A stretch of 64,000 bases of DNA from Bacillales bacterium UBA7029. Its GTDB lineage: Bacteria > Bacillota_I > Bacilli_A > RFN20 > CAG-826. Made by a program: the position numbers and the translations under genes. Positions 12,156-49,056 of the stretch are shown here, one piece after another. The stretch is taken from positions 15,893 through 79,892 of the forward strand of contig DLBE01000043.1 of assembly GCA_002494205.1 (NCBI GenBank). The letters run 5' to 3'. The notes under the pieces were generated by a model. The model ran no database searches. It was not told the origin of the DNA and was given only the letters and a program-made list of their open reading frames with translations. How positions within the stretch are numbered: the first letter of the stretch is position 1; each line of letters begins with the position of its first letter.

Positions 12156-12213
12156 CTTTGCTAGTGCTATAATATTACTTGCTATTATCGCAATTTTGTC
12201 GTATTATTTTGAC

Positions 12214-13539
12214 ATGGAAAAGTTATTAGAATTAAGAAAAAAAATTGGCTTAACGCAAGTTGAAGCCGCAAAAAAACTTGGAGTTTCATTAAGAACATAT
12301 CAAAGATATGAGAATGATGGAACCACAAATGAAAAGCTCTGCAATAAGTTAAAAGATGGCGAATGTGTCAAATTTGTGACAAATGAATTTTTAGGATTTA
12401 AAAATGACGGCAGAATTAAGTTATTAATAATTGTTGGAACACGCCCAGAAATTATTAGGTTAGCCGCCGTCATTAATAAATGCCGCAAATATTTTGACAC
12501 CGTTTTATGCCATACTGGGCAAAACTATGATTACAATCTTAACGGAGTTTTCTTCAAAGATTTAAAAATAAACGATCCTGATGTTTACCTAAATGCAGTT
12601 GGTGCTGACCTTGGTCAAACAATGGGAAACATAATCGCTAAATCATATGAACTTATGGCTGAAATTAAACCAGACGCTGTTCTTGTTTTAGGAGATACAA
12701 ACTCTTGTTTATCAGTCATAGGCGCAAAGCGCCTTCATATTCCCATTTTCCATATGGAAGCTGGAAATAGATGCAAGGATGAATGTCTTCCTGAAGAAAC
12801 AAATAGAAGAATTGTCGACATAATCTCTGATGTCAATTTAGCGTACAGCGAACATGCGAGAAGATACCTCGCCGATTGTGGACTTCCTAAAGAAAGAACA
12901 TATGTAACAGGTTCTCCAATGGCTGAAGTTTTAACTGAAAATCTTAAGGAAATCGAATCAAGTGATATACTTAAAAAACTAAATCTTCAAAAAGGAAAAT
13001 ACATACTTCTTTCTGCTCATAGAGAAGAAAATATTGATACTGAAAAGAACTTCAATTCTTTGTTTAACGCCATTAACTCTATGGCAAAGAAATACGATAT
13101 GCCAATTTTATATTCATGCCATCCTAGAAGTAGAAAAAAACTTCAATCAAGCGGTTTTAAACTCGATCCAAGAGTTGTGATGCATGAACCTTTAGGTTTC
13201 CATGATTATAATAATCTACAAATGAACGCTTTTTGTGTTGTCTCTGATTCAGGAACTTTACCTGAAGAGTCAAGTTTTTATGCTTCAATTAAAAAACCAA
13301 TTGCAGCAGTTTGTATAAGAACATCAACTGAAAGACCAGAGGCTTTAGATGAAGCATGTTTCGTTTTAGCTGGAATTGATGAGAAAAATTTATTACAGGC
13401 TGTTGAAGTTGCAATTAACAATAAAGAAGGCTGTAAACCTGTTGATAATTATGTTGATACAAATGTATCTGATAAAGTTGTAAAACTGATCCAGTCTTAC
13501 GTTGGTGTTGTTAATAAAATGGTGTGGCGAAAAGAATAA
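12214..13539 (+). CDS. UDP-GlcNAc 2-epimerase (CapG/FnlC/WecB-like) with N-terminal XRE-type HTH extension
   Basis: MEKLLELRKKIGLTQVEAAKKLGVSLRTYQRYENDG is HTH_3-like. It is followed by KLLIIVGTRPEIIRLAAV...HMEAGNR...HREEN, the non-hydrolysing 2-epimerase motifs. ATG 12214 is preferred; the track start was TTG at 12196. Confidence 0.8.
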   Translation: MEKLLELRKKIGLTQVEAAKKLGVSLRTYQRYENDGTTNEKLCNKLKDGECVKFVTNEFLGFKNDGRIKLLIIVGTRPEIIRLAAVINKCRKYFDTVLCHTGQNYDYNLNGVFFKDLKINDPDVYLNAVGADLGQTMGNIIAKSYELMAEIKPDAVLVLGDTNSCLSVIGAKRLHIPIFHMEAGNRCKDECLPEETNRRIVDIISDVNLAYSEHARRYLADCGLPKERTYVTGSPMAEVLTENLKEIESSDILKKLNLQKGKYILLSAHREENIDTEKNFNSLFNAINSMAKKYDMPILYSCHPRSRKKLQSSGFKLDPRVVMHEPLGFHDYNNLQMNAFCVVSDSGTLPEESSFYASIKKPIAAVCIRTSTERPEALDEACFVLAGIDEKNLLQAVEVAINNKEGCKPVDNYVDTNVSDKVVKLIQSYVGVVNKMVWRKE

Positions 13540-38349: not shown

Positions 38350-38418
38350 AGTAATAAAATTGTATCGCAAATGAAAGTTGGGATGAATTTTTAAAAATAA
38401 AAGAGTAACCTATTTAGT

Positions 38419-39174
38419 ATGAAGATACTTTTAGTAGATGATGAACAACTTCAATTAATCAGATTAGAAAAAGCTTGTAGGGCTGTTATACCTAGTGCTG
38501 ATTATTTTATTTTTACAAATCCGGTTAAAGCACTTGAAGAAAGTGAAAAAACCAAATTTGATGTTGCGTTTTTGGATATTGAAATGCCATCAATCAAAGG
38601 GATTCAACTTGCTAAAAAATTAAAGAAAAATAATCCTCTTTTAAGTGTTATTTTTGTAACGGCCTATACCGACTATGCTTTACAAGCTTTTAATATTCAT
38701 GCTTCTGGTTACATTACTAAGCCTGTTAACGAAGCGAAAATTAAAGAAGAAATTGAAAATCTTAAAAACATTTCTCCTTTACCGACTACTAAAAAATTAC
38801 AAGTTAAATGCTTCGGCAATTTTGAAGTATTTTGCAAAGGAGAACCAGTTAAATTCTCTTATAAAAAGTCTAAAGAAGTTTTCGCCTATCTTATAGATAG
38901 AGAAGGCTCTGCAATTAATATTAATGAGCTTAATGCAGTTTTGTGGGAGGAAGATCACCCTTCATATTTAAGAAACTTAATTGCAGATATTCAAAAAACT
39001 TTAAAATCACTTGATTGTGAGGATGTTTTCGTTAAACGCCATAACGAATGCTATATTGATGTTGATAAAATCGATTGCGATGCTTACGAATATAAAAAAG
39101 ATAATCCAAACGCTGTAAGACTTTATCGAGGCGAATACATGATGCAATATTCATGGCCAATATTTGATGAATAA
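38419..39174 (+). CDS. orphan response regulator: REC domain plus SARP/OmpR-like winged-helix output domain
   Basis: LLVDDE, phospho-acceptor D in FLDIEMP, T in VIFVTAY, K in GYITKP. C-terminal QVKCFGNFEVFCKGEPVKF...EVFAYL...LNAVLWEE is a winged helix of SARP type. Confidence 0.75.
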   Translation: MKILLVDDEQLQLIRLEKACRAVIPSADYFIFTNPVKALEESEKTKFDVAFLDIEMPSIKGIQLAKKLKKNNPLLSVIFVTAYTDYALQAFNIHASGYITKPVNEAKIKEEIENLKNISPLPTTKKLQVKCFGNFEVFCKGEPVKFSYKKSKEVFAYLIDREGSAININELNAVLWEEDHPSYLRNLIADIQKTLKSLDCEDVFVKRHNECYIDVDKIDCDAYEYKKDNPNAVRLYRGEYMMQYSWPIFDE

Positions 39175-39197: not shown

Positions 39198-40397
39198 ATG
39201 TCTGAAATTGAAAGAACAAATAAGCTTATTTTGATGTTTAAGAATTATGAAGTTCTTTCTTTTTCATATGAATCAGAACCTAAACGAGTTGTTCATATAA
39301 TAGAAAAATTAGAGCATTTTGATAAAGCTCCCTATGGAGTTTTGCATCCACTTTATGACGAGGATACCGCACTTTTGAAATTTTTCAATTCGAGATCTAT
39401 CGCACCTCAAAGATATGATTACAATGAAATTCTTAAAGCTACTAATAGTAAGAATGGATTTGAACTATCTTTTAAAGGACACGGCTTATCTTTAACAAAC
39501 CATTATTGGTTTAAAAAAGAGGGTGAAAAATTAAAATACGAAGATATAAATTTCTTCACTAACAAGTGGGATGATTCCTTTGGAAGAGCGGTATTAAATA
39601 AAGATTATGAGAAACTAAAAAACTGTGATTTAAATGTTCCTGATATTGTTACTAATGGTTGGGCAGTTAAAGGATGGATTTGGGATAATGGTCCAAAGCT
39701 TTATAAATTCTCTAGAGATAAAATTAGCAGCGCAGAAGCTCTTGGTGAAGTTTTGGGTTCAAGACTTGCTAGAAGAATATTTCCAGATGATCAAGTTCTT
39801 CATTATGTACTTAAAAAAATTGGAAATAATTATGCTTCAGCAGCACCTGTACTTATTGGAATTGATGAAGAATTAGTTCCGCTTTCAAATTATTTTAAAT
39901 CTGATGTTTTTCACACTTATTTAAAAAGATTTAATAATAGAGAAGTCCAAAATGAATTTTTTAAATTAATAGAGCATTCTGGTATTCCAGGAATTAAAGA
40001 ATTTTTCATTAAAATTACATGTGTTAGACACTTATGTTTCATTTCCGATTTACATTTTGATAACATTTCTATTATTAAAAATAATAAAACAGGAAAACTA
40101 AGAATGTCTCCTTTATACGATTTAGCAGGAGCTTTCGGGACTTCTGAGTCAGGAAGAAAGTTTGTTTCTAACATTAATAAAGGAACATATCTAGTACTTT
40201 TCTATGTCTTTAATGAGCTAAATCCTGATTGGGATTATTCTTGGTATGACCCAAAACGACTTGACGGTTTCGAGAATGAAATAATCGAAATATTAACAAA
40301 ATCAGAATTTTATACACCCGAATTATTAGATAGAATAATAAATGTTTTCCGCTACCAAAAGGAAGCGTTAGATAAAATAGCAAAAAAGATTAAATAA
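39198..40397 (+). CDS. HipA-like Ser/Thr kinase family protein
   Basis: 399 aa; catalytic region ISDLHFDNISIIKNNKTGKLRMSPLYDLAGAFG matches the HipA_C DxHxxNxS...PxYD motif. 23-nt gap to the response-regulator gene. Confidence 0.55.
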   Translation: MSEIERTNKLILMFKNYEVLSFSYESEPKRVVHIIEKLEHFDKAPYGVLHPLYDEDTALLKFFNSRSIAPQRYDYNEILKATNSKNGFELSFKGHGLSLTNHYWFKKEGEKLKYEDINFFTNKWDDSFGRAVLNKDYEKLKNCDLNVPDIVTNGWAVKGWIWDNGPKLYKFSRDKISSAEALGEVLGSRLARRIFPDDQVLHYVLKKIGNNYASAAPVLIGIDEELVPLSNYFKSDVFHTYLKRFNNREVQNEFFKLIEHSGIPGIKEFFIKITCVRHLCFISDLHFDNISIIKNNKTGKLRMSPLYDLAGAFGTSESGRKFVSNINKGTYLVLFYVFNELNPDWDYSWYDPKRLDGFENEIIEILTKSEFYTPELLDRIINVFRYQKEALDKIAKKIK

Positions 40398-40398
40398 C

Positions 40399-40432
40399 TG
40401 TGACACATTTGTGGCAGATGCTTTGCTAGAAT
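40399..40432 (+). promoter_or_regulatory. heptamer direct repeats TGTGACA / TGTGGCA (11-bp register) abutting a TAGAAT -10 box upstream of the precursor gene
   Basis: Repeats at 40399-40405 and 40410-40416; TAGAAT at 40427-40432; ATG at 40455. Confidence 0.45.
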
Positions 40433-40454
40433 ACATTCAGGATTGGAATTGATT

Positions 40455-40658
40455 ATGAGGAAAGAATTGTTAAAAGGTTTAACTGAGGAACAAATAATTA
40501 AAGTGCAACAATGTAGCGATGTTCGTGATTTAATGCAACTTGCTAAAGATGAAGGTGTTGAATTAAATGATGAGCAACTAAAAGCTGTATCAGGTGGCGC
40601 TTGTTCTAGTGAAACAGATAAAGAAGATTCAGCGCATAATAGAAAAATTGAAAGTTAA
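40455..40658 (+). CDS. RiPP precursor peptide, Nif11-like leader with GG cleavage motif
   Basis: MRKELLKGLTEEQIIKVQQCSDVRDLMQLAKDEGVELNDEQLKAVSGG | ACSSETDKEDSAHNRKIES. The leader resembles Nif11 leaders (SEEQLKAF...IAKEAGF.IT.EEL...VAGG). 19-aa acidic core with one Cys. ATG 40455 is internal to the track ORF, which starts at TTG 40443. Confidence 0.75.
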   Translation: MRKELLKGLTEEQIIKVQQCSDVRDLMQLAKDEGVELNDEQLKAVSGGACSSETDKEDSAHNRKIES

Positions 40659-40660
40659 TA

Positions 40661-42055
40661 ATGTTTTTCCGTTTAAAAGATAATGTTGCATTAAGAAAAT
40701 GGAGATATGTTGATCGTGCGATTTATAAAAAAGGCATAGATCAAGCTCTTGGGGTTTCAAAGGAAGAATTTGAAATCCTTTTGCTATGCGATGGAGAACA
40801 CGATTTAGAAAATAACAAAATAATTCAAGAATTAAAAAATAGAAACCTCATTGAAGAATGTAACAAAGGCGATAAATTAAATGAATGGTCCAAGTTAAAG
40901 GAGTATGATAACTACTATTTTCCACGTATGAATCTAATGATTACTGGAAAATGTAATCTTAATTGTTTGCATTGCTTTAATGCAAAAGATAACGCTCCAT
41001 TAAATTCCGAACTCTCTTTTGAAGAAATTTTAACTATCTTAGATCAAGCAAAAGATATTGGCATTCATTGTTTTACATTAACTGGTGGTGAGCCATTAGT
41101 TCATCGTAAATTTTTAGATATTGTAAAAGCTATTTATGAAAGAAATATGTTCATTTTTGAGCTTAACACTAATGGCTTACTAATTAACCAAAAGATGCTC
41201 GATTTCTTTAAAGAAATAGGTTGCTATCCTTTAATAAAAATTTCTTATGATGGAATTGGTTATCATAACTGGATTAGACAACATCCTAAAGCTGAAGAAC
41301 TTACTTTAAAAGCTATTGAATTATGCATCAAAAATGGCTTCAGAGTGAAAGCCCAAGTTCAAGTTAATCGTAAGAATTTGGATTCGATGTTTGAAACCGC
41401 AAAACTACTTGATAAGATGGGCGTTGATGAGATGAGAATTATAAGAACAACTGAAGCTCCTCGATGGGAAAAGAACGCACCTCAATCATCTTTAACAATT
41501 GAAGAATATTACGAAAATATGCTGGATTTTGCGGCAAAATTCATGAAATCTGGGATGAAAATGACTGTTGATGTTTGGCAGTTTTTACGAATTTATCCAA
41601 GGCACAAACTTTACTCACTTGTACCTATTTCTTGTAATAAAGATGAATTTAATATTCGTATTCCAATGTGTAAAGGTAACCGCGGAATGATTGCTGTTTC
41701 TTCAAAAGGAGAAGTTGTTCCATGCTTACAAATGTCTGGTTACTTTTTGGAAAAAGGTATCAGCTTAGGAAATTTGTTTAAAACGCCTTTAAAAGAATTA
41801 GTGAAAAATAGTCCCTATCTAGATTTAGCAATGGCGCCATTATTTAAACAAATTATTGAGAATGATAAATGTGGTAATTGTAAATACTACAAAGCCTGTA
41901 CCGGTGGTTGCCCTGCTTTGGGCTTATTATATTCTAAAGATATTAATTTCTACCATGAAGATATTACTAAATGCATTTTCTTTGAAAATGGTTGGTATGA
42001 AAAAGTTACAGAAACTTTAAAAGATTTTCATTTACAAAATCCTTTAAATATTTAG
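40661..42055 (+). CDS. radical SAM/SPASM peptide maturase with N-terminal RRE (PqqD-like) domain
   Basis: CNLNCLHC (CxxxCxxC); N-terminal ~90-aa PqqD-like RRE; C-terminal SPASM with CNKDEFNIRIPMCKGNRGM...VVPC...CGNCKYYKACTGGCPA. 3-nt gap to the precursor gene. Confidence 0.85.
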   Translation: MFFRLKDNVALRKWRYVDRAIYKKGIDQALGVSKEEFEILLLCDGEHDLENNKIIQELKNRNLIEECNKGDKLNEWSKLKEYDNYYFPRMNLMITGKCNLNCLHCFNAKDNAPLNSELSFEEILTILDQAKDIGIHCFTLTGGEPLVHRKFLDIVKAIYERNMFIFELNTNGLLINQKMLDFFKEIGCYPLIKISYDGIGYHNWIRQHPKAEELTLKAIELCIKNGFRVKAQVQVNRKNLDSMFETAKLLDKMGVDEMRIIRTTEAPRWEKNAPQSSLTIEEYYENMLDFAAKFMKSGMKMTVDVWQFLRIYPRHKLYSLVPISCNKDEFNIRIPMCKGNRGMIAVSSKGEVVPCLQMSGYFLEKGISLGNLFKTPLKELVKNSPYLDLAMAPLFKQIIENDKCGNCKYYKACTGGCPALGLLYSKDINFYHEDITKCIFFENGWYEKVTETLKDFHLQNPLNI

Positions 42056-42150: not shown

Positions 42151-42531
42151 ATGAAAAAGAATAAAGTTAGTATCTCTAATCCAGAAGAACTAGAAAAAAA
42201 TCTGCAATATTCTTCTCCAGTTACATGGATTGCTTTAGGAGTTGTCTTTTCTCTTATTGTGGGCCTTTTTGTATGGTCTTGCGTTTTCAAAATTAAAGAC
42301 AAAATTATAGGCAAAGCGAAAATTGTCAGTTCTGAAGTTACTCTTGTGGTTGACGCTAATTCTATTTCAAAATTAAAGGTTGGCCAAAAAGTTTATATTA
42401 ATAATTTAGAAGGCGAAATCTTAAAAATTGTTGAGAAAAAGCCTATTATTTCTCATTTTGCATTGGCTGATGGAGAGTACGAATACACCATTATTAATGA
42501 AATTAAACCAATAGAATACTTGATCAAATAA
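42151..42531 (+). CDS. small membrane-anchored protein, possible minimal HlyD/MFP-like export accessory
   Basis: 126 aa; one N-terminal TM; beta-rich C-terminus KAKIVSSEVTLVVDANSISKLKVGQKVYINNLEGEILKIV resembles an MFP barrel-sandwich hairpin. Confidence 0.35.
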   Translation: MKKNKVSISNPEELEKNLQYSSPVTWIALGVVFSLIVGLFVWSCVFKIKDKIIGKAKIVSSEVTLVVDANSISKLKVGQKVYINNLEGEILKIVEKKPIISHFALADGEYEYTIINEIKPIEYLIK

Positions 42532-42533
42532 TT

Positions 42534-44708
42534 ATGGAAAAGGTAAAGAAACCAAAGACTAAAGGCAAAGGAGTTGCAAATACTCCGTTAATCATGCAAT
42601 TAGAAGCTCTAGAATGTGGAGCTGCTTCTTTAACAATGGTTATGGCTTACTATGGAAAGTGGGTACCTCTTGAACAAGTTAGAGTTGATTGTGGTGTTTC
42701 TAGAAACGGAAGTAACGCTAAGAACATTCTTAGAGCTGCTCAAAAATATGGGTTTAAAACATCAGGTTATGCTTACAATATTCAAAAATTAAAAGAAAGA
42801 GGCAAATTTCCAGCGATCATTCACTGGGGTGGAGGCCACTTTGTTGTTTTAAATGGTTTTAGGGGTAATAAAGCAATTATTAATGACCCAGCTAAAGGAC
42901 TTGTTAAAGTCGATTTGAAGACTTTTGACAAAATATTTACCGGAATTTATCTTGAACTTGTTCCAGATGAAAATTTTGTTCCTAGCGGAAAAAGAAAATC
43001 AATTTTTTCATTTGCTAAGAAACGTCTTAAAGGCGCTTTGCCATTAATTATTTTCTTTTCAATTACGACAATTATTTTCTATGTTTTTAGCATTATTTCG
43101 CCTGCTATGAGCCAAGTTTTTGTCGATAAACTTTTAGGTGGGCAAAACCCGTCATGGCTGTTGCCATTTATTCTAGTATTTGCAAGTGTAGCATTGCTAC
43201 AAGTCGTCGTAACAGTAATTCAGAGCATATCGCAATATAAGATTCGAGGCAAACTAGATTTAATTGGTTCAACAACTTATATGTGGAGAATTTTAAGACT
43301 CCCTATTGAATTCTTCTCGCAAAGAATGGTTGGAGATTTGCAAGGACGTCAATCTGAAAACGCATCAATTGCAGAAACATTGGTTAATGTTTTCGCTCCT
43401 TTATTATTTAACACAATTATGATTGTGGTTTATCTGTTTGTAATGATTAATAAGAGCTGGATTTTATCTCTTGTGGGAGTAATAACAGTCCTTATAAATA
43501 TCTTTGTGTCGACAAGAATTTCTAAAGTCAGGGTCAATATTTCCCGTGTTCAAGCTAGAGATAACGCAAGACTTTCTGGCATGACTTCAAAAGGCATTGA
43601 AATGGTCGAAACAATTAAATCAAATGGTGCTGAGCAAGCTTATTTTGAATCTTGGTCCGATGTTCAAAACGATGTTGTTAAAGGAAAGCTTAGAATGTCG
43701 AAAATAAATGCATCACTAGGTTTAATTCCTTCATTTGCAGCAATGCTTGCAAATTACTCAATATTAATTCTTGGTGTTTTCTTCACTATTAAGGGTGAAT
43801 TCACAATTGGTTCAATTTTAGCTTTCCAAGGTTTACTTGGTTCATTTATGCAACCTGTTAATACTCTTATTTCAAGTGGTCAGACATTACAAGAAATGAG
43901 AACCATGATGGAAAGAGTGGATGATGTTTTGGAATATCCTTTAGATGAAAATGTTATTCGTGAAATTAAGACTGACAATGTTTCAAAAATTAAAGGTAAC
44001 CTCATTTTGAAAGATATAACTTTTGGTTATTCTAGACTAGACGAACCAATTTTAAAGAATTTTAATCTGGAAATAAAACAAGGACAAAAGGTTGCAATTG
44101 TTGGTTCAACAGGAAGCGGAAAATCAACGCTATCAAAATTAATTTCAGGTTTATATTCACCTTGGTCAGGAGAAATTATTTTTAATGGCAAGAAGATTAC
44201 TGAAATTGATCACGAAATTTTTACTTCATCAATTGCAGTTGTTGATCAAGATATAACAATGTATGAAGACACAATTTTAAATAATATTAAAATGTGGGAT
44301 GAATCTATTGAAGATTACGAAGTAATAATGGCATGTAATGATGCTCAAATACATAAACAAATCATGGCAAGAGAAGGTGGTTATAATGCTCCAGTTTTGG
44401 AAGGTGGTAAAAACTTCTCTGGTGGTGAGAAACAAAGACTTGAGATTGCTCGTTCTTTAGCTTCTGATCCAAGCATCATCATTTTAGATGAAGCTACAAG
44501 TGCGTTAGACGCCAAAACAGAATCTGAAGTTGTTAAAGCAATTAAAGCTCGTGGCATCACAACAATTGTTATTGCTCATAGATTATCTACCATTAGGGAT
44601 GCTGATTTGATTGTTGTTCTTAATAAAGGCGTAATTGTGGAGCAAGGAACTCACGAAGAATTAATGAAAAATAAAAGTTCATATTACGAACTTGTTACAA
44701 ATGATTAG
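42534..44708 (+). CDS. peptidase-containing ABC transporter (C39 peptidase plus 6 TM plus NBD)
   Basis: C39 Cys in QLEALECGAASL and His in GGGHFVVL; Walker A GSTGSGKST; LSGGEKQR; ILDEATSALD. Confidence 0.9.
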   Translation: MEKVKKPKTKGKGVANTPLIMQLEALECGAASLTMVMAYYGKWVPLEQVRVDCGVSRNGSNAKNILRAAQKYGFKTSGYAYNIQKLKERGKFPAIIHWGGGHFVVLNGFRGNKAIINDPAKGLVKVDLKTFDKIFTGIYLELVPDENFVPSGKRKSIFSFAKKRLKGALPLIIFFSITTIIFYVFSIISPAMSQVFVDKLLGGQNPSWLLPFILVFASVALLQVVVTVIQSISQYKIRGKLDLIGSTTYMWRILRLPIEFFSQRMVGDLQGRQSENASIAETLVNVFAPLLFNTIMIVVYLFVMINKSWILSLVGVITVLINIFVSTRISKVRVNISRVQARDNARLSGMTSKGIEMVETIKSNGAEQAYFESWSDVQNDVVKGKLRMSKINASLGLIPSFAAMLANYSILILGVFFTIKGEFTIGSILAFQGLLGSFMQPVNTLISSGQTLQEMRTMMERVDDVLEYPLDENVIREIKTDNVSKIKGNLILKDITFGYSRLDEPILKNFNLEIKQGQKVAIVGSTGSGKSTLSKLISGLYSPWSGEIIFNGKKITEIDHEIFTSSIAVVDQDITMYEDTILNNIKMWDESIEDYEVIMACNDAQIHKQIMAREGGYNAPVLEGGKNFSGGEKQRLEIARSLASDPSIIILDEATSALDAKTESEVVKAIKARGITTIVIAHRLSTIRDADLIVVLNKGVIVEQGTHEELMKNKSSYYELVTND

Positions 44709-44720
44709 AAAGGAGTAAAC

Positions 44721-46901
44721 ATGGGTTGGTTTGAAGAGCAAGTAAAACAAAGAAAAGAACTCGATGCAAAAACATTCGAAGAATCTTTCATGTCGCTTGC
44801 TGGATTAAAAGTCGATAATAAAGAAAGTTTGACTGACGAACAAATAAAAGATAACTTTGTTATTAGTCAAATACTTTCATATTTCAACCATCAACCTATT
44901 GATATTCCAAAGTCTATTGATAATTTTGAAGATAAATTAAATTATGTTATTTCACAAACGGATTTCGTTTATAGAAAGATCAATTTAGATAAATCTTATT
45001 CCGACAATAACAAGTTTCCAATCCTTATTTTTGTCCCATTTAATAACTCTCCAGTTTTACTTTTCCCTAAAGGAAAGGATAAATACTATTATATAAATTA
45101 CGCGACAGGAAAAAGAGCTACTATTGATTCTTATTTAGTGAACGGACTAGAACTTGAAGCATATACTTTCTATCGTCCACTTCCAAAATCAAAAATTTCA
45201 TTTAAAGGCTACGCTTCTTACTTAAAGAAATCGGTTAAACCATTGGATTTAATTTTGCTTATTTTGTTCACAATTGCCGCCTCTGGTGTCGGACTTTTAA
45301 TCCCTTTTCTCACTAAGAGATTGACAGGTGAAGTTGTTAGCAAAGGTGAAATCCCATTCTTTATTTTAATTTCAAGTTTTGTTGTAACCGCTGCAACAGG
45401 TTTACTTTTAGTAAAAGCGGTTCAGTCTTTTATCAATATTAAAGTTTCAACTAAGATTGAGAAGTCTATTCAAGAAGCCACAATGATGAGAGTTTTATCT
45501 CTCCCAGCTTCTTTCTTTAAGAAACATAATACCGGTGAACTTGGCTTAAGATTTAGCAATGTAGTCTTTTTAGCAAGATTAATCATTGCTGGAATGTTTA
45601 CAACGCTAACTTCGGTTATCATGTCTTTTGCTTATGTATTCCAATTAATTGGTTTTGCCCCATCCTTAATTTGGCCTGTTGTACTAATTTTATTAGTGAA
45701 CACAAGTTTTACAATTTTAATTTCTTTTATTCAGAAAGAATATGCTAAAAAACAACTTGAACTAAGCGCTAAAGAAGCTGGTGTTACTTATGAAATGATT
45801 AATGGCATCCAAAAGATTAGACTTTCCGGAAGCGAAAAACGTATTTTTGCAAAATGGGCTAGTGCTTATTCTAAGAGTGCAAAACTTAAATATAATCCTC
45901 CTATGATTTTAAAACTTAGTGGAGCATTGTCCTTATTAATTTCATTATTAGGTACTCTACTTATTTATTTTGTGGCCGCCAAAAACAACATTGATGCAAG
46001 TAGTTACATGGCATTTATGTCTAGCTATGGTGTTTTATCTGCTGCTTTTGCATCTTTATCTCAAGTTGCTAGTACATTATTTACTATTCAACCAATTTAT
46101 GAAATGGCTCGCCCAATTTTGGAAAGCGAACCTGAATCTAATGAAGGAAAAATTGAACTTAAACACATTACTGGAAATATCACAATTAAAGATGTCTCCT
46201 TTAGATACACTGAAACTGGTCCACTTATCTTAAATAAGTTTAATTTAGACATTAAAGAAGGCGAATATCTTGCAATAGTTGGTCAAACAGGTTGTGGTAA
46301 ATCTACATTGGTGAGACTTTTACTTGGTTTTGAAAAACCTATAAATGGTGAAGTATTATATGATAATATAAACATTAATGATGTTAATTTAACTTCATTA
46401 AGAAAGAATATTGGTACTGTTATGCAAAATGGAACTTTATTCCATGCTGATATTCTATCTAACATCATTATTTCTAACCCGAGTCTAAAAAACGAAGATG
46501 CTTGGGAAGCAGCGGAGATTGCTAATATTGCCGAAGATATTAGAGAAATGCCAATGGGAATGAGAACTGTTATATCGGAAGGTCAAGGTGGTATCTCTGG
46601 TGGTCAAAAACAAAGGATTATGATTGCTAGAGCAATCGTCCATAAACCTAAAATTCTCATCTTTGATGAGGCAACATCCGCTTTAGATAATAAAACCCAA
46701 AAATCTATTTCAGATTCAATCAGTAAACTCAATTGTACACGTATTGTAATCGCGCATAGACTATCGACAATTAAAAATGCTGATCGAATTATTATGCTTG
46801 AGGGTGGCAAAATTATAGAGCAAGGAGATTATAAAACTTTGATTGCTAAAAATGGCAAGTTTGCTGAACTTGTTGAAAGACAAAGACTTGATACTAATTA
46901 G
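44721..46901 (+). CDS. partner ABC transporter with a degenerate, Cys-less C39-like N-terminal domain
   Basis: 726 aa; the N-terminal ~150 aa lack a catalytic Cys; 6 TM; Walker A GQTGCGKST; ISGGQKQR; IFDEATSALD. SD AAAGGAG. Confidence 0.85.
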   Translation: MGWFEEQVKQRKELDAKTFEESFMSLAGLKVDNKESLTDEQIKDNFVISQILSYFNHQPIDIPKSIDNFEDKLNYVISQTDFVYRKINLDKSYSDNNKFPILIFVPFNNSPVLLFPKGKDKYYYINYATGKRATIDSYLVNGLELEAYTFYRPLPKSKISFKGYASYLKKSVKPLDLILLILFTIAASGVGLLIPFLTKRLTGEVVSKGEIPFFILISSFVVTAATGLLLVKAVQSFINIKVSTKIEKSIQEATMMRVLSLPASFFKKHNTGELGLRFSNVVFLARLIIAGMFTTLTSVIMSFAYVFQLIGFAPSLIWPVVLILLVNTSFTILISFIQKEYAKKQLELSAKEAGVTYEMINGIQKIRLSGSEKRIFAKWASAYSKSAKLKYNPPMILKLSGALSLLISLLGTLLIYFVAAKNNIDASSYMAFMSSYGVLSAAFASLSQVASTLFTIQPIYEMARPILESEPESNEGKIELKHITGNITIKDVSFRYTETGPLILNKFNLDIKEGEYLAIVGQTGCGKSTLVRLLLGFEKPINGEVLYDNININDVNLTSLRKNIGTVMQNGTLFHADILSNIIISNPSLKNEDAWEAAEIANIAEDIREMPMGMRTVISEGQGGISGGQKQRIMIARAIVHKPKILIFDEATSALDNKTQKSISDSISKLNCTRIVIAHRLSTIKNADRIIMLEGGKIIEQGDYKTLIAKNGKFAELVERQRLDTN

Positions 46902-46915
46902 TGGAGGCTAATAAT

Positions 46916-47203
46916 ATGAAACATAGTTTAGAAAAAGATGTACTTACACTCTTCTTAGAAGGAGAACTTAATTCTTTTAATTCTGAAGATGTTGAGAAAG
47001 AAATTGAAGAAATACTTAAAACAAATTCCTTTAAATCAATTGTTTTAGATTTAAAAGATTTGACTTATATTTCATCTGCTGGTCTTAGAATAATTATTAG
47101 ACTTAAACAACAATGTGATAATACTTCAATTATTCACACTCCAAAGGATGTTTTAAATATTTTTAAAATGGTAGGATTTACTAGTATTTTAAAAATTGAT
47201 TAA
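46916..47203 (+). CDS. STAS-domain protein (anti-sigma-factor antagonist, SpoIIAA/RsbV-like)
   Basis: LDLKDLTYISSAGLRIIIRL contains the conserved phosphorylatable Ser region. SD GTGGAGG 8 nt upstream of ATG 46916. Confidence 0.75.
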   Translation: MKHSLEKDVLTLFLEGELNSFNSEDVEKEIEEILKTNSFKSIVLDLKDLTYISSAGLRIIIRLKQQCDNTSIIHTPKDVLNIFKMVGFTSILKID

Positions 47204-47205
47204 TT

Positions 47206-49056
47206 ATGGCTTTAAAAGAAAGACAATTTGTTGACGCTTATCATGATAATGAAGCAGATGCCAATAGGCATATGTCTTTTGTTAATGCAGCTGCTGGTAT
47301 TTTGGCTTTAATTATTTGGGCTTTGTATTTAGCAAGAGTATTTACAATTCCTGATCATTTTTTCCCAGTTGTCATGATTTTATTCCCTACAGCAGCAGTA
47401 TTGTTATTTGTGCCACTTTTTCTTGTGAAAACTGATCTTGTAAGAAGACCTGCTTATAAATACTTTATAATATTTTCACTTTTGGCTGTTGTTATTGCAT
47501 TAAATATATCAATTCCAAAACATTCTCTTTTATTTTGGCCCTTTATTATTTTAATCGCGAATCACTATTACAATCCTACGCTAGGGCGTGTAGTTTATGT
47601 TGTGACTATTGTTGCAATGCTTATTTGCATGTATTTAGGCATGTTTTTTGGTGAATTTGATGAAAACTTATTTGGTGGTGGTGTCATTTTAAAAGATGGT
47701 ACAATCGGAACAGTTGAAACATTTACTGAACGAAAAGAGCTTCTAGATCAACTTGCTAAAAACGGAAATAACCGTTACATTAAAGCTCTTATTTTCTATT
47801 ATTTCCCTAGAGCGATGATTGTTACATTGTTCTTTATGGTAAGTAATCTTTTAAACAAAAGAACATATAAACTGCTTGATGCTGAAATTAGAGCTCACGA
47901 CGAACAAGAAAAAGCAAAAACAGAGCTAGAAGTTGCTAAAGGCATCCAACTAAATACACTTCCAGGTGAATTTGCGTCTAATGACGGTGTAGAAATCTTA
48001 GGTGAACTAAGAGCCGCAAAAGAAGTTGGTGGAGATCTTTATGATTATGTTGATATTGATAAAGACCACGTCGCTATTTTAATTGGAGATGTTTCTGGTA
48101 AAGGCGTTCCTGCTGCTATGTTTATGATGAAGACAATCACTTCATTTAGAGACTTTGCAACTAAAGGAAAAAGCCCATCTGAAATTCTTAAAGCAGTTAA
48201 TAAATCAATTTTTAAAGGAAATACTGACTTCATGTTTGTAACTTGTTTCCTTGCTATTTTAGACAAAATAACAGGCAAACTTGTTTATGCAAATGCAGGT
48301 CATAATCCACCTATTATTGGTTCAAATAAAAATTATAAATTTTTAAATAGTAAACCTGGTTTAATTTTAGGCTGTTTTGAGAATTCAAATGTTGTTGATG
48401 AAGAAATTATTTTAAAACCAGGTGAGACTATTACTTTATATACTGACGGAATTACTGAAGCAAAAAACGGAGAAGGAAAACTATTTGGTGAAAGTAGATT
48501 CCTTAATGTTTTTAATAAGAAAAACTACACTTGCACAATTGAGCTCCATAGTCAGATTAAAGATGAAATTGCAGAATTTGTTAAAGATGCACCTCAAAGT
48601 GACGATATAACAATTTTAACATTAAGATATAAAGGTGATAATTTACAATACGATCAAAAACATTTTGAAGCCAAAAAAGAAAATACCGTCGATATTCTTG
48701 GCTTCATTAAAGATTTCTCTGCAAGACATAATTTTTCAGGCGAATTTACAAATAAACTTTTGATAGTAGGTGACGAACTTGCCTCAAATATTATCAACCA
48801 TGGTTATAAAAATAACGGTGGACCTATCTTTATTCGTTTACTTTTTAATGAAGATAAAAAAGAATTTGTATTAACAATTATCGATAGTGCTGTTGAATTT
48901 AATCAACTAGAGGTTGAGGACACCCCAATTTCTGGAGAAGCTAAAAAACAAAAAATTGGCGGACTTGGTTTACTAATTGTTAAAAACATTATGGATGAAT
49001 ATTCTTATCAAAGAGTGAACAATAAGAACATCTTGGTATTAAAGAAAAACCTTTAA
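47206..49056 (+). CDS. membrane sensor fused to a PP2C (SpoIIE/RsbU-type) phosphatase and a GHKL anti-sigma-factor-type Ser kinase
   Basis: 616 aa; ~5 N-terminal TM; PP2C motifs GDVSGKGVPAAMFMM ... TDGITEA ... DDITIL; C-terminal HATPase_c of RsbW type ELASNIINHGY ... GGLGLLIVKNIMDE. Confidence 0.75.
   Translation: MALKERQFVDAYHDNEADANRHMSFVNAAAGILALIIWALYLARVFTIPDHFFPVVMILFPTAAVLLFVPLFLVKTDLVRRPAYKYFIIFSLLAVVIALNISIPKHSLLFWPFIILIANHYYNPTLGRVVYVVTIVAMLICMYLGMFFGEFDENLFGGGVILKDGTIGTVETFTERKELLDQLAKNGNNRYIKALIFYYFPRAMIVTLFFMVSNLLNKRTYKLLDAEIRAHDEQEKAKTELEVAKGIQLNTLPGEFASNDGVEILGELRAAKEVGGDLYDYVDIDKDHVAILIGDVSGKGVPAAMFMMKTITSFRDFATKGKSPSEILKAVNKSIFKGNTDFMFVTCFLAILDKITGKLVYANAGHNPPIIGSNKNYKFLNSKPGLILGCFENSNVVDEEIILKPGETITLYTDGITEAKNGEGKLFGESRFLNVFNKKNYTCTIELHSQIKDEIAEFVKDAPQSDDITILTLRYKGDNLQYDQKHFEAKKENTVDILGFIKDFSARHNFSGEFTNKLLIVGDELASNIINHGYKNNGGPIFIRLLFNEDKKEFVLTIIDSAVEFNQLEVEDTPISGEAKKQKIGGLGLLIVKNIMDEYSYQRVNNKNILVLKKNL

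Follow-up and report, generated by a model that had tools for sequence, protein, structure and literature searches.

The tandem heptamers ahead of the precursor peptide gene in the window (the whole 64-kb stretch of DNA analyzed) belong to a promoter element that recurs in related loci, and comparison of these sites argues decisively for a conserved cis element and against a product of chance. Moreover, the box at 40399-40420 probably serves as operator for a response regulator whose gene lies 1.2 kb upstream and which is a putative phosphorylation-dependent activator of the PhoB/SARP type.

On rereading of the sequence, the coordinates, the 11-bp offset, and the 10-nt gap to TAGAAT given in the preliminary description all proved exact (Table 1). 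The two heptamers are separated by the 4-nt spacer CATT, and the gap between the second repeat and TAGAAT (40417-40426) shrinks to 6 nt if counted from the 11-bp unit. The HipA-like gene ends with TAA at 40395-40397, 2 nt ahead of the box, and the ATG of the precursor gene lies at 40455. TGcTAGAAT forms an extended -10, and a -35 element is absent, with the hexamers at 16- to 18-nt spacing (ACATTT, CACATT, and ACACAT) matching TTGACA at no more than one of six positions; the precursor promoter was not in the list produced by a -35/-10 promoter scan of the window. The TG of the extended -10, together with the missing TTGACA-like hexamer, strengthens the promoter reading, and the earlier proposal that the repeats take the place of the -35 hexamer agrees with this good extended -10, the lack of a -35 hexamer, and the location of the repeats at the -35 position. 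With a transcript beginning 7 nt past the -10, the hexamer would occupy -12 to -7, the TG -15/-14, and the 22-bp box -40 to -19. This would be the register of the afs box, in agreement with the SARP-like geometry described at the outset (11-bp repeats over the -35 region).

Table 1. Promoter elements and genes around the tandem repeats (positions are those of the window)
Feature	Position	Strand	Remarks
Candidate response regulator gene	38419-39174	+	REC (D7, D8, D53, T81, K101), SARP-like winged helix (~residues 125-215), conserved C-terminal stub
HipA-like protein gene	39198-40397	+	Weak HipA_C match, below cutoff
Operator, two 11-bp units (TGTGACAcatt + TGTGGCAgatg)	40399-40420	+	Predicted register -40 to -19
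Upstream heptamer TGTGACA	40399-40405	+	Predicted register -40 to -34; kept as TGTGRCA in 32 distinct sites
Downstream heptamer TGTGGCA	40410-40416	+	Predicted register -29 to -23
TG of extended -10	40424-40425	+	Related sites: T in 27/32, G in 23/32
-10 hexamer TAGAAT	40427-40432	+	T30 A30.. A24 T31 of 32; fixed 10-nt distance
Predicted transcription start	40438-40440	+	~7 nt past the -10 (about 40439)
Precursor peptide gene	40455-40658	+	67 residues; Nif11-like leader ending VSGG; single-Cys core ACSSETDKEDSAHNRKIES
Radical SAM/SPASM maturase gene	40661-42055	+	2 nt past precursor stop
Short HlyD-like ORF (126 aa)	42151-42531	+	Matches only the first ~65 residues of HlyD-type adaptor proteins
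C39-peptidase ABC exporter gene (NHLM ABC1)	42534-44708	+	
Second ABC exporter gene (ABC2)	44721-46901	+	
STAS protein gene	46901-47203		
SpoIIE phosphatase fused to RsbW-like kinase domain	47206-49056		

Within the window, TGTGRCA was found 11 times versus 11.03 expected, indicating no enrichment, and the exact tandem pattern had a single occurrence. A 6-of-7 repeat at an offset of 10 to 11 was present in 8 to 11% of random 57-mers, and the same repeat followed by TAnnnT 8 to 12 nt downstream was present in 1.1% of them. Since ~1% of random 57-mers show the pattern, the pattern judged from the window alone is no more than suggestive. A one-mismatch operator look-alike, TGTGTCAAATTTGTGACA (12364-12381), is located inside the ORF at 12196-13539 and was rejected as a second operator, considering its position in a coding region and its score of 15.6 bits, which equals background.

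To compare related sites, 51 loci were fetched by genome scan from rumen Bacilli/Erysipelotrichaceae, Lachnospiraceae, Oscillospiraceae, and other groups, and sites were searched by a degenerate scan and then by a weight-matrix scan. The radical SAM protein of the window has many relatives at 75 to 87% identity, and the box also precedes the orthologous precursor genes, in flanks that diverge. Results revealed 33 sites in 19 loci and the window, scoring 21 to 33 bits (28.9 bits for the window operator) and lying on the gene strand in every case; the best non-site matches reached 15.8 and 15.6 bits, and shuffled sequence gave 0 to 2 matches of ≥12 bits. The consensus reads gTGTGRCAcwTtTGTGRCA-N5-t.TG.TAaaaT, which can also be written gTGTGRCAcwTtTGTGRCA-N10-TAnAAT. 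The 11-bp offset is exact in all 33 sites, G occupies position 4 of every heptamer (32/32 for the upstream as well as the downstream half-sites), the spacer is conserved as C-W-T-T, and the second heptamer is TGTGACA in 17 of 32 sites. Each heptamer column carries 1 to 2.4 bits of information versus <0.4 in the flanks, and the conserved part of the operator comprises its first 18 bp plus the base before. Several features are conserved even though site selection did not impose them, namely, the spacer T (32/32), the TG (23/32), and TA...T at a constant distance of 10 nt. At most related sites, the start codon follows the end of the -10 by 21 to 32 nt. In addition, an operator-first scan of metagenomes yielded at least 120 further contigs with the box, and 62 of the 120 contigs listed were without a recognizable cluster gene. 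The view that the repeats are a real regulatory element is upheld by the 33 sites, their shared -10 register, and these metagenomic contigs. Six matches at 52 to 60% G+C (L071, L075, L095, L151, L164, and L179) showed the exact box with TAnnnT and no recognizable cluster gene; a double-glycine peptide is encoded downstream of the L164 box, and the other five may be chance matches or belong to a related system of other taxa.

The genes behind the box in the window encode the precursor, its maturase, and the exporters (Table 1), and the precursor and maturase genes are presumably cotranscribed, given the 2-nt gap between them. At 40751-40779, ~90 nt into the radical SAM coding region, there is a terminator-like hairpin followed by a T-rich tail, which could either set the precursor-to-enzyme ratio or be a chance occurrence (4 found versus 1.6 expected in the stretch). 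The short form of the HlyD-like ORF at 42151-42531 is kept, at 27 to 60% identity, in most related loci, which argues for a real small protein rather than a broken gene. In the HipA-like protein, DLHFDN and PLYDL, as read from the sequence, look like kinase catalytic motifs, and its gene is a conserved neighbor of the regulator. The order regulator, HipA-like protein, precursor, radical SAM enzyme, and exporters was observed in nine loci (L006, L008, L009, L010, L013, L014, L016, L027, and L001, the last of these with no precursor). The partner-switching module at 46901-49056, sometimes accompanied by a STAS-APH protein, travels with the radical SAM/exporter cluster (L015, L019-L024, L029-L037, L042, L050, and L053-L056) and spans Bacilli, Lachnospiraceae, and Oscillospiraceae, including taxa without the regulator and the box.

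Genes downstream of the box include those for Nif11-leader precursors, other double-glycine peptides, the HipA-like protein, and many secreted proteins. Among the metagenome matches listed, 44 contigs have a Nif11-leader precursor starting ~58 to 60 nt past the site start, about 8 have other double-glycine peptides, and ~20 have signal-peptide proteins downstream. Locus L007 encodes several Nif11-leader precursors with one site each, and in L001 and L026 a site stands directly ahead of the radical SAM gene. The HipA-like gene has its own site, between the regulator and HipA-like genes, in L002, L003, L008, L013, L014, and L017, and L027 has a weaker site directly past the regulator gene; no site was found in the 23-nt gap between the two genes in the window. 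Secreted-protein targets in the genome loci were located in L002 (548 and 1467) and L003 (1168). Large targets with a signal peptide or lipoprotein signal were also observed in L067, L084, L103, L113, L119, L132, L134, L154, L167, and L184, the largest, of up to 2,259 aa, being that of L134. These large secreted-protein targets suggest that in some rumen Bacilli the regulon extends well past the peptide cluster. Longer precursors are also present behind the same operator (L007 504-1800, L008 5403-5730, L013 3435-3780, L020 3568-3900, L089, L174, and L182), with a Nif11-like or short double-glycine leader and a core carrying two CxxC(G) pairs that has a zinc-ribbon look.

The candidate binder is the response regulator encoded at 38419-39174. 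Its receiver domain matches PF00072 (E value of 4e-22) and has an intact phospho-acceptor pocket, with D7, D8, D53, T81, and K101 unchanged across 31 homologues. In an AlphaFold model of the complete chain (pLDDT of 75.5), the fold matches that of the OmpR/PhoB regulators DrrB, PrrA, and PhoP. The isolated C-terminal domain was modeled with a moderate mean pLDDT of 64.7, reaching 70 to 89 across much of the winged helix, and its top five Foldseek matches in the PDB were AfsR and EmbR chains (E values of 5.7e-4 to 2e-2), with AfsR 8hvr (5.7e-4), AfsR 8k60, and EmbR 2ff4 ranked over SaeR, YycF, ArlR, and PhoB. Pfam gave no DNA-binding model for the C-terminal domain of the window protein, not even PF00486 at an E value of 10; among 72 family members, 29 matched PF00486 (Trans_reg_C), with a best E value of 1.4e-14. 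The family profile found EmbR as its best match (E value of 0.0029), in an alignment that ends in the first helix of the BTA domain, and neither the window protein nor any of the 72 family members gave a BTAD Pfam match. Only ~30 residues follow the wing, forming the conserved stub YRGEYM.QYSW, in which G238, E239, M241, Y244, and W246 are ≥90% invariant across the family. The SARP-like winged helix previously attributed to the nearby regulator is consistent with AfsR and EmbR being the best solved-structure matches, with the caveat that the protein lacks the BTA domain and therefore cannot be counted as a true SARP.

The family of this DNA-binding domain is large, with 2,034 representatives at E ≤ 1e-3 (~2,000 clusters at 50% identity). 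Seven representatives (P0243, P0244, P0248, P0251, P0253, P0259, and P0266) contain the complete domain twice, in tandem, within one polypeptide, as expected of a domain working as a head-to-tail pair, and in P0243, P0244, P0248, and P0251 there is room for a receiver-size domain ahead of the first copy. P0246 (locus L052) is a distant family member in an unrelated context. One source labels a 73%-identical relative a "two-component SAPR family response regulator," and a full-text literature search (COG3947, SAPR, and REC-SARP regulators) found no experimental paper on the family. In most relatives, the regulator gene begins inside the gene for a LytS-type membrane kinase of ~420 aa (PF06580 plus HATPase_c), a layout seen upstream of the regulator in L001, L008, L013, L014, L020, L027, and L056-L064. 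The window regulator gene is preceded by a divergent GH114 gene, and no kinase homologue is encoded in the 64-kb window, indicating that the regulator is an orphan here.

Box and regulator co-occur across genomes. Among the 51 loci ascertained by the radical SAM gene, a site was found in 10 of the 11 with the regulator in range and in 8 of the 40 without it (Fisher P = 3e-5), and in most of those 8 the sequence ends upstream. Moreover, radical SAM clusters of Lachnospiraceae and Oscillospiraceae have neither regulator nor box. In individual loci, L020 has the regulator and a site and no HipA-like gene, L011 has a HipA-like gene and neither regulator nor site, L015 has the regulator and no site in range, and L026 and L045 have sites and no regulator within the 4 kb examined. 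A member of the DNA-binding-domain family is encoded on 10 of the 120 operator-ascertained contigs listed, and on 6 of these 10 no more than 60 nt separate the regulator stop codon from the site start. In L082, a site stands ahead of the kinase-regulator operon; no autoregulatory site was found 5' of the window regulator gene (38371-38418). In addition, no site was detected within 10 kb of regulator homologues (71 to 78% identity) in L053-55 and L059-62, loci with no peptide cluster, which neither support nor refute the box-regulator pairing. The 305-bp gap between the regulator and STAS genes in L053 (10757-11061; also in L054 and L055) encodes a Walker-A-like remnant of an ABC transporter, and judging from this sequence the block of HipA-like, precursor, radical SAM, and exporter genes seems to have been deleted in L053, with the regulator left behind. 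The co-occurrence agrees with the regulator-operator pair originally proposed, with the regulator as the putative binder.

From the predicted register match to the afs box and the pho-box layout, we infer that the regulator is probably a phosphorylation-dependent activator. Upon phosphorylation of Asp53, two regulator molecules would bind head to tail, one per repeat, and the bound pair would lie on one face of the DNA at approximately -40 to -19. There it would substitute for the absent -35 contact and recruit RNA polymerase with the housekeeping sigma factor, as PhoB does at pho boxes and AfsR at the afs box. The precursor gene would thus be switched on, and the radical SAM maturase and exporter genes would be expressed by read-through across the 2-nt gap. 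In most relatives, the phosphate donor would be the LytS-type membrane kinase encoded directly upstream of the regulator.

The same operator and regulator might instead act in repression, with the protein bound at -40 to -19 blocking a self-sufficient promoter, although we consider this unlikely. Promoters with an extended -10 are able to function in the absence of a -35, which makes repression through this site conceivable; the TG in 23/32 sites and the near-consensus -10 fit this reading, and OmpR-family regulators placed over core promoters can repress. However, all 33 promoters lack a -35 and show the rigid, activator-type register of pho-box and afs-box promoters, the L082 site ahead of the kinase-regulator operon has the usual layout of positive autoregulation, and repressor operators rarely hold one strand and one distance over dozens of unrelated targets.

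There is also little likelihood that the box is bound by some other host regulator of the OmpR family, for example a WalR/VicR-like regulator of the cell envelope, and is linked to the cluster regulator only indirectly. TGTGACA departs from the TGTWAHA-N4-TGTWAHA pattern at position 4 only, VicR footprints the bacteriocin gene nlmC (PMC4168254), and the ~20 operator-ascertained contigs listed with signal-peptide proteins downstream are reminiscent of a wall regulon. Nevertheless, G is invariant at position 4 (32/32), where WalR needs A or T, and the strand of the present box is fixed, whereas WalR/VicR sites are found on both strands (PMC4168254 Table 1). Furthermore, sites recur directly past the stop codon of the cluster regulator and were not found in the Lachnospiraceae and Oscillospiraceae radical SAM clusters without that regulator.

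It is very improbable that the repeats are something other than a transcription-initiation operator (an RNA element or a sigma-54 or CRP-type site), with the precursor expressed mainly by read-through from the regulator/HipA-like operon. No terminator was found in the window between the HipA-like stop codon and the precursor gene, and TGGCAG-N5-TTGCT in the window resembles the -24/-12 consensus of sigma-54; yet TGnTAnAAT at a fixed distance, with the start codon 21 to 32 nt on, is a housekeeping-sigma signature. A sigma-54 promoter was rejected on the grounds that related sites do not keep the GG/GC pair, with the GC at -12 varying among them, and that no enhancer-binding AAA+ ATPase is encoded in the cluster. 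A CRP/FNR site was rejected, as the repeats are direct and not the inverted TGTGA-N6-TCACA, the invariant G at position 4 meaning that the heptamer is not a palindrome. An RNA element was likewise rejected, the sole Rfam match scoring 27 bits versus a gathering score of 90. A chance repeat without function, for which the lack of heptamer enrichment in the window and a comparable repeat in ~10% of random 57-mers might speak, is refuted by the 33 sites in 20 genomes and the at least 120 metagenome contigs in the same -10 register and can be given almost no weight.

Activation through the box by the cluster regulator, the preferred reading, is of a type that is already textbook (PhoB and SARP). 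The new elements are the operator consensus, its pairing with an uncharacterized family that combines a receiver with a SARP-like domain, lacks the BTA domain, and has a LytS-type kinase partner, and, in uncultured rumen Bacilli, a candidate regulon that comprises secreted proteins along with radical SAM peptide precursors. A precise consensus and a candidate regulator-operator pair are thereby provided, both directly testable. More tentatively, and with somewhat less than even confidence, a large family of REC plus SARP-type winged-helix proteins, retaining only a stub of the BTA domain and controlled by LytS-type kinases, may replace the -35 in the style of SARP and PhoB outside Actinobacteria, and in rumen Bacilli may underlie a regulon resembling those of quorum sensing, in which every gene has a box of its own and radical SAM precursors, further double-glycine peptides, a HipA-like kinase, and numerous large secreted proteins are turned on. 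If the regulator-operator pair is confirmed, SARP-type DNA-binding domains would work under aspartate-phosphorylation control in Firmicutes, and the promoter and regulator would offer a handle for activating silent rumen radical SAM peptide clusters in a heterologous host. The operator also serves as a mining tool, considering that a scan by the box alone recovered precursor-gene arrays and unexpected secreted-protein targets.

Compared with known systems, the promoter recalls those of SARPs (AfsR/afsS, ActII-ORF4, and DnrI), with which it shares 11-bp direct repeats on one DNA face over a missing or poor -35. The afs box of AfsR lies at -40 to -19, overlaps the -35, and has repeats 11 bp apart bound by a side-by-side dimer, and in SARP promoters the 3' repeat is 8 bp from the -10 (PMC10936776). 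However, the present regulator is without a BTA domain and has an N-terminal receiver instead of NOD/TPR or FHA domains, its hosts are low-G+C rumen Bacilli rather than Actinobacteria, its repeat is TGTGRCA and not TCGAGCG-like, and its promoter has a strong extended -10. The combination of REC with a winged helix and of heptamer-N4-heptamer at the -35 is shared with PhoB and the pho box, which is located 10 bp upstream of the -10. The PHO box CTGTCATAAAGTTGTCAC around the -35 spans 18 bp, with two 7-bp direct repeats and a 4-bp A/T-rich spacer (PMC8601176), and PhoB-type effector domains bind head to tail (PMC4415409). The present system differs from PhoB in the sequence and orientation of the repeat, an effector domain closer to those of SARPs, a LytS-type (PF06580) rather than PhoR-type partner kinase, and a putative regulon of peptides and secreted proteins instead of phosphate genes.

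The heptamer-N4-heptamer layout and the TGT..(C)A core are likewise shared with WalR/VicR sites, the WalR consensus being TGTWAH-N5-TGTWAH and the VicR refinement TGTWAHA-N4-TGTWAHA (PMC4168254), and the fold matches include the YycF effector domain. Here, in contrast, the box has G at position 4 and a fixed position and strand relative to the -10, and the regulator is nonessential and cluster linked. Finally, the genetic setting resembles that of the LytTR regulators ComE, PlnC, and AgrA, in which a kinase-regulator pair adjoins genes for double-glycine-leader peptides and a C39 ABC exporter and, as a functional analogy, each peptide gene has one direct-repeat promoter. Kinases of the PF06580 type usually partner LytTR regulators, and LytTR sites consist of 9-bp repeats ~21 bp apart upstream of the -35, whereas the present regulator has no LytTR domain and its box consists of 7-bp repeats at 11-bp spacing over the -35.
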